Positions 12,392 to 14,742 of a stretch of 64,000 nt of DNA are shown one piece after another (position 1 is the stretch's first letter; each line of letters opens with the position of its first letter). The stretch is from Callorhinchus milii (lineage: Eukaryota): positions 16,246,001 through 16,310,000 of the forward strand of contig NW_024704742.1 in NCBI RefSeq assembly GCF_018977255.1, read 5' to 3'. The position numbers and the translations under genes are program-made. A model generated the notes under the pieces. It had not been told where the DNA came from. It searched no databases and saw nothing but the letters and a program-made list of their open reading frames with translations.

Positions 12392-14215
12392 ATGGGGTGT
12401 GTAGGCAGTAAAGGGGACTGTCGCAGCAGTTGTTGTAAGAAAGAAACCCGAGAATTAGTGAGTCGAAATGCGAAGGTTATGAATAAGGTAGTAGAAGGAA
12501 GTGGTGATTGGGAAACAATGTGGAAACGTAAATTTGGATTTGATGGGCGATTAAAACCTGAGAGTACACAAGAATTATTGAATAAAATAAAAGAGAAAAG
12601 TGGAGATGATAAGAAAAAACAATTGAAATATCATTATGGGGAAGCACAAGTATGGCATATGAAAGCCACGGAATATCGACGGCTGGGTGAATTGACAGAA
12701 ACCAAAACAAAACTATTGGCTTACACAGGGAAGGAGGATTTAGAGACTCCAGCCTCTCAACGCCCGGAAAATGGGCATGGTGCTCCACCAGCGTATGGGT
12801 CAGAACAGCCCACGGCACCTTTAAACCGAGCATATAATCCGAGGACGCCAAACAATGCTGACCCATATGTCAGATGGCTCCATGATAATTATCAAAACAA
12901 ATCCGCACTCCCGAGCTCCCCTTCAAACCCACCTATGCAGGTAAATGTAGGAACAGCAGGGAATTTCCCAATGATACAAGTGGCAGACGGACAGGGGAAC
13001 ACCCAGTACGTGTATAGGGCATGGGGAATGGAGGATGTTAAGAGGGCAATGATCGCCTGTCCCCATCCCAATCAAGGGGGAACCGAATTTCGAGATTTTA
13101 TGTATCAAACCATGGCAAGTTACAGGCTAAATAGTTTAGAAACCGAGCAGTGCATAAGAGAGGTGTTGCGTCAGGAATGGTGTCAGGTCGGGGGAGATTG
13201 GACAGCATTAGACAATGAGGGAGCACCAAGAATGTATGACCGTCCACCGGTAGCAGCAAACCGCTCCCAGCATGATTATTGGGGACCCTTCGACCAATTA
13301 ATGGGGAGAATAGTTACATTTTATAGAGCCAGATGTAACTATTCGGCGATAACGGATTGTATTCAGGGAAAAGACGAAACGTGTATGCAATACTATACGC
13401 GATTGCGCAAGGTGTTTAATTCCAATAGTGGAATCGAACCACCACATCCACATGATGATACTGGAGTTTGGGCACAACAAATTAAGAATGCATTTCTGGC
13501 GGGAATGGTGCCCCATATTTCAAAATTGGTAAAACAACATCTAATAACATGGAGTACAGGGGCACTCCAGCCAGTATTAGATCATGCCATCCATTTTGAA
13601 CGAATAACAAGGGAAGAGAAGAGGAATAATAGGCATAATGAGGGATTTATATCACAAGAAGTTAATAAACAACCATGGCAGAATAGAAAGAGGAAGCAAA
13701 AGAACAATAATGGGGGAGAATGTTATGTTTGTGGGAAAATGGGACACTGGGCAAGGGATTGTCCAAACCGGTGGAAGTCCCAAAAGCCCGAAGAAGAAGG
13801 AGAGGAGGAGAGAGAGGAGACTGAACGTATATTGGCGTTAATACAGTCTCCTGGGAGTGCTTGGTTGACATTAAGAGTGAATGGAATTGACATACCGTTT
13901 TTATGCGATTCAGGAGCATGTAGAACGGTTATTACGATGAGAGACGCAACTTTTCCTTATAAAAAGAGTCAGGAAAAAATTGATATTCGGTCAGCGTCCG
14001 GAGACTTAGAAACACAATGCGTCACGGAACCTCTTGAATTCTGTTACAAGAATAAAGAGACTGTAGAAGCACAAGTGGTTATATCAATGACATGCCCGGT
14101 TAATTTACTAGGGAGAGATGTGTTAACTAAACTCAAGTTAGGAGTGATACCTATGGGTGACGACCGATGGGAAGCAGTTAAGGTTACGTACAAAAAAAAA
14201 TTGAAGATACCCTAA
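12392..14215 (+). CDS. gag-pro: ERV Gag-protease polyprotein (607 aa)
   Basis: MG myristoylation start, PPAY and PTAP late motifs, MHR-like IQGKDETCMQYYTRL, one CX2CX4HX4C knuckle (CYVCGKMGHWARDC), aspartic protease FLCDSGA and NLLGRD, all in one frame. Confidence 0.93.
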   Translation: MGCVGSKGDCRSSCCKKETRELVSRNAKVMNKVVEGSGDWETMWKRKFGFDGRLKPESTQELLNKIKEKSGDDKKKQLKYHYGEAQVWHMKATEYRRLGELTETKTKLLAYTGKEDLETPASQRPENGHGAPPAYGSEQPTAPLNRAYNPRTPNNADPYVRWLHDNYQNKSALPSSPSNPPMQVNVGTAGNFPMIQVADGQGNTQYVYRAWGMEDVKRAMIACPHPNQGGTEFRDFMYQTMASYRLNSLETEQCIREVLRQEWCQVGGDWTALDNEGAPRMYDRPPVAANRSQHDYWGPFDQLMGRIVTFYRARCNYSAITDCIQGKDETCMQYYTRLRKVFNSNSGIEPPHPHDDTGVWAQQIKNAFLAGMVPHISKLVKQHLITWSTGALQPVLDHAIHFERITREEKRNNRHNEGFISQEVNKQPWQNRKRKQKNNNGGECYVCGKMGHWARDCPNRWKSQKPEEEGEEEREETERILALIQSPGSAWLTLRVNGIDIPFLCDSGACRTVITMRDATFPYKKSQEKIDIRSASGDLETQCVTEPLEFCYKNKETVEAQVVISMTCPVNLLGRDVLTKLKLGVIPMGDDRWEAVKVTYKKKLKIP

Positions 14216-14742
14216 TTATCCAAGAAAGGGGGGAACCACAATACTATTATGCCCTACAGTTAAAGGAAGGGCCAGGACAATTCCAACAGGAACTGCTTAG
14301 ATTGGCACACCAGCGGGTCATGGAACAAAGTGACTTCCACCTGCCTGAGGATCTGCACTGTACCATGTGGTACCGTGAAAAAGGGGGAAGTTCGTTGCCA
14401 TATGAGAGACATTTCAAATTGGGAAGTTCCACACGATTAACGATTCAATGTATATATTGGAATGCAACTGATATGGGAGGGAAAGTTTTACTCCAACCGT
14501 TAGATGATCAGCTATACCAGGGAGAAGGGAACCCCCATGTATCAATTGCAAAGAGATGCAAAAAGTCATGGCAACAAGTGGGTAACCTGGTAGATTGTGG
14601 GATAAAAGCACAGGATTGGGAAGAGACTCAGGATGCAGGGATATGGTATTCCCCGAGGACAGGTCTCTACTCACAATGTTTGAATTGGGTGTATCAATGT
14701 GAAAGAGTTAGGAAGATGCACTCAGGGAAGATGGTTCCCTGA
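14200..14742 (+). CDS. ERV 2H-phosphoesterase (CNPase-like) domain between protease and RT
   Basis: Frame -1 relative to gag-pro, open from 14182 to TGA 14740-14742. Two H-x-T/S-hydrophobic motifs, LHCTM (His at 14356) and PHVSI (His at 14536), 60 aa apart. Confidence 0.75.
   Translation: MEDTLIIQERGEPQYYYALQLKEGPGQFQQELLRLAHQRVMEQSDFHLPEDLHCTMWYREKGGSSLPYERHFKLGSSTRLTIQCIYWNATDMGGKVLLQPLDDQLYQGEGNPHVSIAKRCKKSWQQVGNLVDCGIKAQDWEETQDAGIWYSPRTGLYSQCLNWVYQCERVRKMHSGKMVP

Follow-up and report, generated by a model that had tools for sequence, protein, structure and literature searches.

Between the protease (PR) and reverse transcriptase (RT) of a provirus in the Callorhinchus milii genome lies an additional coding segment, which we take with moderate confidence to be a genuine and probably active CNPase-type 2H enzyme; it would be produced at the level of Gag, packaged into particles and used to open 2',3'-cyclic phosphates. 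Viral 2H phosphodiesterases (PDEs) are topical in innate immunity, with ns2 and VP3 acting against OAS-RNase L and Acb1 and poxvirus PDEs acting against cGAMP. The retroviral version appears, from its structural model, to be a well-folded and conserved domain of the CNPase clade, and its unusual placement, within the Gag-PR frame and upstream of a candidate read-through stop, implies high dosage and packaging. Since the family is recent and includes copies whose gag-pro-domain frame is open, the natural protein is directly expressible and assayable, and a computational note more than 15 years old thereby becomes testable. A positive assay would bring a new enzyme class to the few accessory enzymes of retroviruses and might also extend viral counter-defence to a new class of substrate.

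The provirus and its additional domain

As shown in Table 1, the window (the whole 64,000-nucleotide stretch analysed) contains a class I (gamma/epsilon-like) retrovirus provirus with LTRs flanked by a target-site duplication, a tRNA primer-binding site, a Gag zinc knuckle, PR, RT, RNase H and an integrase that carries an MLV-type C-terminal domain (Pfam MLVIN_C). The two LTRs are identical at 545 of 545 bases, which bears out the youth ascribed to the provirus in the first-pass annotation, and five full-length copies are 99 to 100% identical. ARAGORN identified host tRNA-Pro(agg) and tRNA-Pro(cgg) genes whose ends match the first 15 complementary bases of the primer-binding site. The RVP match covers residues 505 to 597 of the frame at 12353-14215, and the RT frame contains RVT_1 at about 15025-15507 (E 4.2e-29) together with a match to RT_RNaseH_2. 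The short env-like frame matched no Pfam family, and contigs of sequencing runs that were only guessed to be RNA showed no canonical splice joint for env. A TATAAA-like box near 12013 and an AATAAA near 12114 could be read in the 5' LTR.

Table 1. Features of the provirus, in window coordinates
Feature	Position	Strand	Basis or detail
Target-site duplication GGTAC, 5' copy	11673..11677	+	same 5 bases at 19227-19231
5' LTR (TG...CA), 545 bp	11678..12222	+	blastn against 18682-19226
Primer-binding site, complementary to tRNA-Pro 3' end	12224..12241	+	sequence reading, ARAGORN
gag-pro frame, MG... start	12392..14215	+	translation; Pfam
NC zinc knuckle in gag-pro	13718-13768	+	Pfam zf-CCHC, E 9.1e-8
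Protease in gag-pro	13865-14143	+	Pfam RVP, E 9.7e-14
A-run, departure from gag-pro frame in window copy	14192..14200	+	comparison of sibling copies
CNPase-like 2H domain (predicted), 180 aa	14200..14739	+	AF2 model, CNPase match, motif conservation
In-frame TGA, context TGA-CTG, separating domain and RT; candidate read-through stop	14740..14742	+	
Predicted stem-loop just 3' of stop	14744..14820	+	MFE -29.9 kcal/mol, z -2.99
Reverse transcriptase frame, same frame as 2H domain	14743..16113	+	Pfam, translation
Second frame break of window copy, RT and RNase H-IN frames overlapping	16001..16113	+	ORF list
RNase H and integrase frame	16001..17830	+	Pfam RNase_H, rve, MLVIN_C
Short env-like frame, 210 aa, signal-peptide-like start	17831..18463	+	translation
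Polypurine tract adjoining 3' LTR	18670..18681	+	read from sequence
3' LTR	18682..19226	+	blastn against 5' LTR
Target-site duplication GGTAC, 3' copy	19227..19231	+	read from sequence

A stop-to-stop frame of 186 aa at 14182-14742 separates PR from RT. The first-pass annotation had described an extra segment of some 180 codons at this place, containing the motifs LHCTMW and PHVSIA with histidines at 14356 and 14536, 60 aa apart. The translation reproduced each of these particulars: there are 180 codons, the His of LHCTMW is residue 53 (codon 14356-14358), and that of PHVSIA is residue 113 (codon 14536-14538). The segment thus carries the two H-x-T/S motifs that define the 2H superfamily, LHCT at His53 and PHVS at His113. 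The proposed order of PR, extra segment and RT also proved correct beyond the window, since the order RVP, X, RVT_1, with X as the additional domain, was found in four of the four long relatives scored for both (P0091, P0092, P0074, and P0066). Motifs and position alike are conserved over a large family of ERV polyproteins.

Predicted fold, homologues, and relatives

An AF2 model built from an 84-row alignment, composed of the query and 83 of 86 library matches, reached a pLDDT of 93.8 and a pTM of 0.87, with strands beginning at residues 53 and 113. The model shows a two-lobed 2H fold in which each H-x-T/S motif starts a central strand. A single-sequence AF2 model was poor (pLDDT 35.6), so that the fold rests on one alignment-based model. 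When the model was compared with the PDB by Foldseek, the first matches were the catalytic domains of CNPase from mouse, human, and rat and of RICH from goldfish (E 1e-7 to 1e-5; TMq 0.56-0.67), and among the matches listed (ranks 1 to 50) all were CNPase or RICH. A Foldseek-independent search of the PDB placed CNPase at Z 15.6 (162 residues aligned, rmsd 3.5); the next 20 rows were all 2H enzymes, at Z 9.7 to 5.7, and unrelated folds appeared from Z 4.5. Judged by the model, CNPase is the nearest solved structure by far. These comparisons, which took in CNPase, LigT, AKAP18, ns2, VP3, and Acb1, recovered the 2H fold with CNPase first and other 2H enzymes at Z 9.7 or lower, and the CNPase-like 2H identity given in the first-pass annotation was thus upheld. 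BFVD structure matches included Acb1 rows. Neighbours in the ESM Atlas were labelled tRNA_lig_CPD or 2H-SAK, which we regard as a lead only.

At the sequence level, Pfam returned no family at E≤1 for the window's domain, the CNPase model PF05881 included, and among 35 homologues there was no PF05881 match and a single weak match to LigT_PEase (1/35, E 0.055). A phmmer search of PDB sequences with the domain gave no matches, and a PDB profile search with the family alignment was dominated by retroviral proteases because most of its rows include PR. Alignment of the family profile with the host CNP exons by hhalign was not significant (probability 2 to 3%), the aligned pieces being in the right register. 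The absence of a curated-model match is a limit of sequence models, not a superfamily-defining property.

Vertebrate CNPase (mouse 2xmi, human 1woj, rat 2ilx, and goldfish RICH 2i3e) has the 2H fold and the two H-x-T/S motifs in common with the modelled viral domain, and motif 1 reads LHCT both in the virus and in the host's CNP exon (LHCTTKF). However, the two are only 13 to 17% identical, the catalytic domain of CNPase is about 215 aa long compared to 180 aa in the virus, and neither the N-terminal kinase-like domain nor the lipidation tail of CNPase is seen in the viral domain. Moreover, motif 2 of CNPase is H-I-T preceded by Arg-x, whereas that of the virus is H-V-S preceded by Pro.

A search of 1.84 billion representatives yielded 86 homologues at E≤1e-3, including 20 at E≤1e-10; those with a named source are teleost (Takifugu and Danio). 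The alignment has 84 rows; of the 78 that cover motif 1, 68 read HxT there, and of the 81 that cover motif 2, 71 read Hx[ST]. Both motifs are intact in 61 of the 75 homologues that span the pair, so related proviruses have kept the His motifs, as the first reading of this DNA entailed. Together, the 86 homologues and these counts indicate that the segment is not a product of chance. The best-conserved positions are the catalytic ones, H53 (72/78), T55 (71/77), H113 (76/81), and S115 (72/82), which would be unexpected for a scaffold. This pattern speaks against a non-catalytic role, whether as a spacer or assembly module or as a mimic of the host CNP that binds HIV-1 Gag MA. Such a role would agree with the fusion of the domain to Gag-PR, with the 14 of 75 homologues lacking an intact motif, and with PMC7471995, where host CNP is listed among inhibitors that bind Gag(MA) and stop particles from forming; on balance, we consider it very unlikely. 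Many of the rows that lack a motif are probably decayed endogenous copies.

CNPase-type ORFs or domains in teleost epsilon-like ERVs were reported by Basta et al. 2009, according to PMC4977317. Like the window provirus, the elements described there are class I ERVs of the fish type to which a CNPase-like module has been added. They very probably belong to the same family as the 86 homologues; the window provirus is a new, very young example of that kind. A 2H domain in walleye dermal sarcoma virus and walleye epidermal hyperplasia virus is credited to Mazumder et al. 2002 in PMC9503650. These exogenous fish retroviruses have the 2H fold in common with the window domain, and their BFVD models match it at E 2e-8 and 4.7e-7 (TMq 0.65-0.67, identity 13-16%). 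The walleye module is labelled Envelope polyprotein in BFVD and thus lies in env, whereas the module of the window lies at the PR-RT junction, so the module may have been acquired more than once. The first-pass remark that retroviral 2H modules are known computationally only agrees with the published literature, as far as the available text of PMC4977317 and PMC9503650 goes, and we found no enzyme assay of retroviral 2H/CNPase modules in the literature.

Reading frame and expression of the domain

The A-run just upstream of the domain consists of 9 A in the window copy and in one sibling (L002). In five copies (L003 to L007) it consists of 10 A, and in three others of 8 A followed by G-A; in both of these groups, the frame is unbroken across the run. 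The run of the window copy is thus one base shorter than that of its siblings, which places the domain out of frame with gag-pro, and Gag-PR-2H is therefore probably not made by the window copy itself. The first-pass claim that the provirus keeps an intact enzyme accordingly holds for the 180 codons, but the copy that carries them here is frame-shifted relative to gag-pro. In its siblings, the domain forms the C-terminal part of one gag-pro-X frame of about 783 codons, counted from the gag ATG, and open frames of 795 to 796 aa were found in four of seven copies, whose domain is identical. Within the domain, the copies of this genome vary at 0 to 3 sites. P0033 and P0092 likewise have the gag zinc knuckle, PR, and X in a single frame. 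We considered a programmed -1 frameshift at the A-run and rejected it, since in 8 of 10 copies the run is longer by one base, which makes a shift unnecessary. Near 16060, close to the second frame break of the window copy, contigs from other sequencing runs vary in length.

The domain segment ends in an in-frame TGA, which makes it part of the gag-pro frame and not of a continuous pol. A second lineage in the genome, 45% identical in the domain, has TGA-CTA at the domain/RT junction in seven of seven loci, and 60 of 72 homologues end no more than 25 aa past the domain. An in-frame stop upstream of RT is thus conserved among divergent relatives, as in programmed read-through of the gag-pol type. 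Because the domain ends the gag-pro-X frame and this frame is closed by a conserved TGA-CT stop, the domain would be made at the level of Gag. As a candidate read-through stimulator, the hairpin that follows the stop is suggestive only: equal or better folding was obtained in 4 of 200 shuffles, and the hairpin had no Rfam match.

We propose that the main translation product would be Gag-PR-2H, and that RT-RNase H-IN would be added only through occasional read-through of the TGA. The enzyme would then be present in Gag amounts, be taken into particles, and be freed by the viral protease.

Candidate substrates and roles

Our best guess is that the domain acts as a CNPase-type 2',3'-cyclic phosphodiesterase, with cleavage of 2-5A or cGAMP as a weaker rival. 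As the model is far closer to CNPase than to the 2-5A and cGAMP PDEs, the 2',3'-cyclic phosphodiesterase is the more economical reading; structural nearness to CNPase in a model does not fix the substrate. With CNPase-like chemistry, 2',3'-cyclic phosphodiesters would be converted to 2'-phosphates, the two His serving as general acid and base. The substrates may be free 2',3'-cNMPs or RNA ends made by host metal-independent RNases, and the most likely purpose would be counter-defence or damage control near the packaged RNA and the tRNA-Pro primer, during assembly and early infection. Betaretroviruses and non-primate lentiviruses carry in pro/pol an extra nucleotide-metabolising domain, the dUTPase, with a fold and chemistry unrelated to 2H. 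By analogy with the retroviral dUTPase, the 2H domain might follow the logic of an accessory enzyme.

A bolder proposal, which we advance tentatively and think rather improbable, is that particles of fish retroviruses contain roughly one CNPase-type enzyme for each Gag molecule, as a virion "ligand eraser" that is brought into the newly entered cell and removes nucleotides and RNA ends with 2',3'-cyclic phosphates, the mark of host metal-independent RNases. In work on TLR7/8 and RNase T2, such products are described as ligands of endosomal RNA sensors. If true, the eraser would be the first of its class among retroviral accessory enzymes and a novel viral means of blunting RNA sensing.

The main idea of the first-pass annotation was that the domain cleaves 2'-5' oligoadenylate or cGAMP-type messengers. 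Such cleavage would block OAS or cGAS-STING signalling. The structural comparison of the model does not support this proposed antagonism of messengers, since the score of CNPase (Z 15.6) exceeds that of each messenger PDE by about 6 Z units: Acb1 scored 8.6, MHV ns2 7.5, AKAP18 7.2-7.3, VP3 6.1-6.3, and penguinpox PDE 5.7. All of these enzymes do appear among the structural matches, and ns2, VP3, AKAP7, Acb1, and the poxvirus PDEs have the superfamily and its catalytic motifs in common with the domain. The coronavirus ns2, torovirus, rotavirus VP3, and AKAP7 proteins also resemble it in having two catalytic His and, in the viruses, a module in or next to a polyprotein, but their structural match is much weaker (Z 6.1-7.5). 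Phage Acb1 and the avian poxvirus cGAMP PDEs use a minimal 2H/LigT-like fold for counter-defence, but are stand-alone small proteins of DNA viruses. The ns2/VP3-type PDEs occur in mammalian RNA viruses and trace back to AKAP7-like genes, according to PMC10835031, the main text of which does not mention retroviruses; nor does the main text of PMC11410667, a paper that describes repeated retargeting of the 2H fold to different messengers, a precedent for messenger cleavage.

OAS genes are present in the host, with four tandem OAS1_C loci on one contig (C8) and one on another (C1). Only two KEN-domain loci were found, both multi-exon kinase-KEN genes in which small exons adjoin the kinase exons, and none of 33 minus-strand frames within 10 kb of them was an ankyrin frame; this result, which is not evidence that RNase L is absent, leaves an RNase L effector putative in the host. 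The named homologues, moreover, come from teleosts, which are not known to have OAS, and retroviral replication generally yields little dsRNA. The domain's fast divergence would fit a host-virus conflict: the two lineages of this genome are about 70% identical in RT, as against the 45% in the domain given above. This difference could reflect an arms race or weak constraint. Altogether, we regard messenger cleavage as unlikely.

The RNA-end and Appr>p enzymes gave the next-best structural matches after CNPase (drCPDase, Z 9.7; LigT, 8.8; Arabidopsis CPDase, 7.6; Usb1, 7.1), which would suit a domain that serves replication by opening 2',3'-cyclic phosphates at RNA ends, be it of the tRNA-Pro primer or of genomic RNA, or that acts on Appr>p, a by-product of tRNA splicing, like the plant and yeast CPDases. 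Such end healing would leave a free 3'-OH, and the tRNA-Pro primer of the provirus needs an intact CCA end; Gag-level dosage would place the enzyme beside the packaged RNAs. Other fish ERVs carry macro domains, whose step comes directly after that of a CPDase (PMC4977317), and end processing has been proposed for some RNA-viral 2H domains, those in nidovirus polyproteins (PMC9503650). Nonetheless, retroviruses mostly do without an enzyme of this kind, so that the need for it would be host-specific; damage to the primer ends is hypothetical here, and the 2'-phosphate product may still impede priming. We therefore rate end healing as improbable, more so than cleavage of messengers.

For the CNPase-type reading, we also compared the residue that lies five positions past the first catalytic His. 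In mouse CNPase, Phe235 is the base-stacking aromatic at this place. The host CNP exon has Phe five residues past its first His and the window has Tyr58, an equivalence drawn by motif offset only. Of 81 alignment rows, 53 have an aromatic residue (Tyr or Phe) at this position, and 16 have Val.

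Structure and age of the provirus

The 2H domain lies in a complete provirus, whose features are collected in the table below with domain assignments from Pfam. The provirus, called young in the first-pass annotation, is very young: its LTRs are identical at 545/545 positions, and five full-length copies are 99 to 100% identical to each other. All five share a short env-like frame that matched no Pfam family (in the window it has a signal-peptide-like start), and, since each is ~7.5 kb long, the family seems to have spread in an env-reduced form. Contigs of three sequencing runs (X6, X11, and X1) follow the 5' flank up to 11677 and continue from there, with no provirus between, into sequence similar to the 3' flank, which hints at an empty-site allele and thus at an unfixed insertion. 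Of these loose ends past 11677, the longest is similar to the 3' flank of the window, yet not identical. The U3 of both LTRs contains a tandem duplication of ~48 to 52 bp (copies 94% identical), which looks like an enhancer repeat.

Features of the provirus, its second-lineage relatives, and the rest of the window
Feature	Position	Remarks
Complete provirus	11678-19226	
LTRs		545 bp each, TG...CA ends
Target-site duplication GGTAC	11673-11677 and 19227-19231	5 bp; flanks both LTRs
U3 tandem duplication	11792-11891 and 18796-18895	
Primer-binding site	12224-12241	18 bases, just 3' of 5' LTR; complement is the end of host tRNA-Pro genes
Gag zinc knuckle and retroviral protease (RVP) frame	12353-14215	RVP, E 9.7e-14
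PR-RT intervening frame	14182-14742	stop to stop; holds the 2H domain
Nine-A run	14192-14200	
2H domain	14200-14739	180 codons
His codon, LHCTMW	14356	
His codon, PHVSIA	14536	
TGA	14740-14742	
RVT_1 frame	14743-16113	
RNase_H, rve, and MLV-type integrase C-terminal domain frame	16001-17830	
RT/RNase H-IN overlap	16001-16113	
Env-like frame	17831-18463	210 aa
Short env region	17831-18463 and 18464-18681	
Tandem repeat arrays (families D1, D2)	31399-32621	
Repeated segments (families D4, D6)	27546-27959 and 56644-57059	
Second-lineage loci L011-L017	C8:428799, C3:256598, C3:50099116, C2:64865123, C2:64885767, C5:53649253, C30:831724	contigs of the C. milii genome

Fold and conservation of the 2H domain

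Pfam returned no family for the window domain at E ≤ 1, phmmer returned no PDB chain at E ≤ 10, and LigT_PEase gave a weak Pfam match in only 1 of 35 homologues. An exhaustive HMMER search retrieved 86 homologues at E ≤ 1e-3, the best of them 59% identical. AlphaFold run on the single sequence gave a poor model (pLDDT 35.6); the model from an 84-row alignment reached a pLDDT of 93.8 and a pTM of 0.87. Foldseek placed CNPase catalytic domains (mouse, human, and rat) and goldfish RICH at the top of the PDB, with E values of 1e-7 to 1e-5. In a Foldseek-independent structure search of 48,161 chains, CNPase scored a Z of 15.6 over 162 residues (rmsd 3.5), and the next 20 rows were all 2H enzymes. 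Z scores were 9.7 for bacterial CPDase, 9.2 for 4qak, 8.8 for LigT, 8.6 for Acb1, 7.6 for Arabidopsis CPDase, 7.5 for MHV ns2, 7.3 for AKAP18, 7.2 for ASCC1, 7.1 for Usb1, 6.3 for VP3, and 5.7 for penguinpox cGAMP PDE, while unrelated folds started at 4.5. Judged by this ranking and these scores, the modeled fold is 2H, and CNPase is the nearest clade by a wide margin. The 2H/CNPase assignment is thus well supported; the first-pass annotation had proposed a 2H phosphoesterase with motifs resembling those of CNPase, and both His codons lie exactly where it had placed them. The CNP gene of C. milii itself carries the motifs LHCTT and SHITL. Aligning the profile of the viral family with the host CNP exons gave no significant match. 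If a CNPase-like host gene was the source, its capture would be old, or sequence divergence was very fast.

Conservation of the His motifs in relatives, proposed earlier as a check, was confirmed in the 84-row alignment. Of the 78 rows covering motif 1, 68 read HxT; motif 2 reads Hx[ST] in 71 of 81; and 61 of the 75 rows that cover both motifs keep the two intact. The motif losses in the 14 remaining rows are unsurprising because many rows are probably decayed endogenous copies. The top conserved columns, numbered within the 180-aa domain, were H53, T55, H113, S115, K118, W124, W140, and Y68. An excerpt of PMC7471995 lists host CNP among inhibitors of HIV-1 particle formation, acting by Gag binding, which is a curious parallel and no more. 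A noncatalytic role of the viral domain is unlikely, since conservation is highest in the catalytic columns. Domain copies in the C. milii genome differ at 0 to 3 sites, too few for dN/dS.

The PR-RT junction, likewise read from the sequence at first pass, recurs as the site of the domain. In alignment A1, which comprises the query and 34 matches, PR lies upstream of the domain in 25 of 35 rows, and the order PR, domain, RT is invariant in the long polyproteins examined. The database homologue P0091 has RVP at 67-163, the domain at 188-350, and RVT_1 at 461-619; P0092 has a zinc knuckle at 378-394, RVP at 522-617, the domain at 663-829, and RVT_1 from 937; and P0074 and P0066 share this architecture. 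Three of six long matches are source-named, all from teleosts (Takifugu, Danio). The best structure match in BFVD was a polyprotein fragment (E 3.4e-10, TMq 0.75), followed by proteins annotated as Envelope polyprotein in walleye epidermal hyperplasia virus 1 (E 2e-8) and walleye dermal sarcoma virus (E 4.7e-7; accessions Q9WHI8 and A4GTG3). In these exogenous viruses the 2H-like fold is found in Envelope-labelled proteins, whereas the window provirus has it at the PR-RT junction, a difference that may reflect independent acquisition or domain shuffling.

A passage of PMC9503650 credits the 2H domain of walleye retroviruses to Mazumder et al. 2002, and one of PMC4977317, citing Basta et al. 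2009, mentions fish ERVs with CNPase or macro domain proteins. Our literature search on retroviral, epsilonretroviral, and walleye 2H phosphoesterases and on teleost ERV CNPase found no experimental study, and "retrovir" is absent from the main text of two recent papers surveying viral 2H/LigT-like phosphodiesterases (PMC10835031, PMC11410667). The retroviral 2H/CNPase domain is a class known computationally and ignored experimentally, of which the window provirus is a new, very young example.

Reading frame and the stop after the domain

In this copy, gag-pro is in frame 2 and the 2H segment in frame 1, joined at the nine-A run. In a comparison of ten close copies from the same genome, the run counts nine A in this copy and at locus L002, ten A in five copies, and eight A plus G-A in three; the last two forms leave the frame unbroken across the run. 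Because the frame is continuous in these eight copies, a single gag-pro-2H frame is the normal state of the family, and the homopolymer of this copy lacks one base. Open frames of 795 to 796 aa occur in four of the seven copies with a 100% identical domain. Since eight of ten copies keep the frame without any shift, programmed -1 frameshifting at this run was rejected. The overlap of the RT and RNase H-IN frames marks a second frame break in this copy, and at both sites the window differs in length from the contigs of three other sequencing runs.

The 2H segment terminates at a TGA, and RT continues in the same frame. The junction reads TGA-CTG in the window and TGA-CTA, at exactly the same place, in 7/7 loci of a second lineage. 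Moreover, among database homologues long enough to cover the C-terminal part of the domain, 60 of 72 stop ≤25 residues past it. A hairpin directly 3' of the TGA (-29.9 kcal/mol, z -2.99; 4 of 200 shuffles fold as well) had no matching family in Rfam. By analogy with gammaretroviral gag-pol, we infer a read-through stop, but one sited after PR and the 2H domain; translation would then yield the domain in Gag, rather than Pol, amounts. The most interesting addition of the analysis is this placement in the Gag frame, ahead of a conserved stop of the leaky type.

The second lineage, in the same genome, is far more divergent from the window provirus (~45% identity in the domain, ~70% in RT) and persists as at least seven internally deleted elements, in which the first ~80 gag residues are joined to the middle of the 2H domain. 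These elements lose motif 1, run on through the TGA into RT, and have the same tRNA-Pro primer site as the window provirus; they look like a non-autonomous derivative family.

Proposed activity and other window features

With the fold, motifs, conservation, position, and frame of the domain established, we infer its reaction and purpose as follows. Most economically, a CNPase-clade domain with both catalytic His would act as a 2',3'-cyclic phosphodiesterase giving 2'-phosphates. A Gag-PR-2H product would be packaged with genomic RNA and the tRNA-Pro primer, PR would free the domain, and the substrates would be cyclic-phosphate nucleotides and RNA ends from host metal-independent RNases. On sequence alone, the benefit might be either immune evasion or RNA-end healing.

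Cleavage of immune messengers (2-5A, cGAMP), the activity first suggested for the domain, is possible but not the best fitting. The 2H fold is known to be retargeted, according to an excerpt of PMC11410667, the domain evolves faster than RT, and the host has an OAS gene cluster, with four tandem OAS1_C loci on one contig (C8:9857539-9882207) and one more at C1:108396392-108398357. However, the structural distance to known messenger PDEs is large, and the search of the host for an RNase L gene gave only two KEN (Ribonuc_2-5A) loci, both resembling multi-exon kinase-KEN genes.

Elsewhere, short imperfect tandem repeats, spaced 8 to 14 bp, form two long arrays in the window. It also contains two ~410-bp segments of 95 to 97% identity, lying in direct orientation at a distance of 29.1 kb, which could belong to a dispersed repeat or mark both ends of some larger element.
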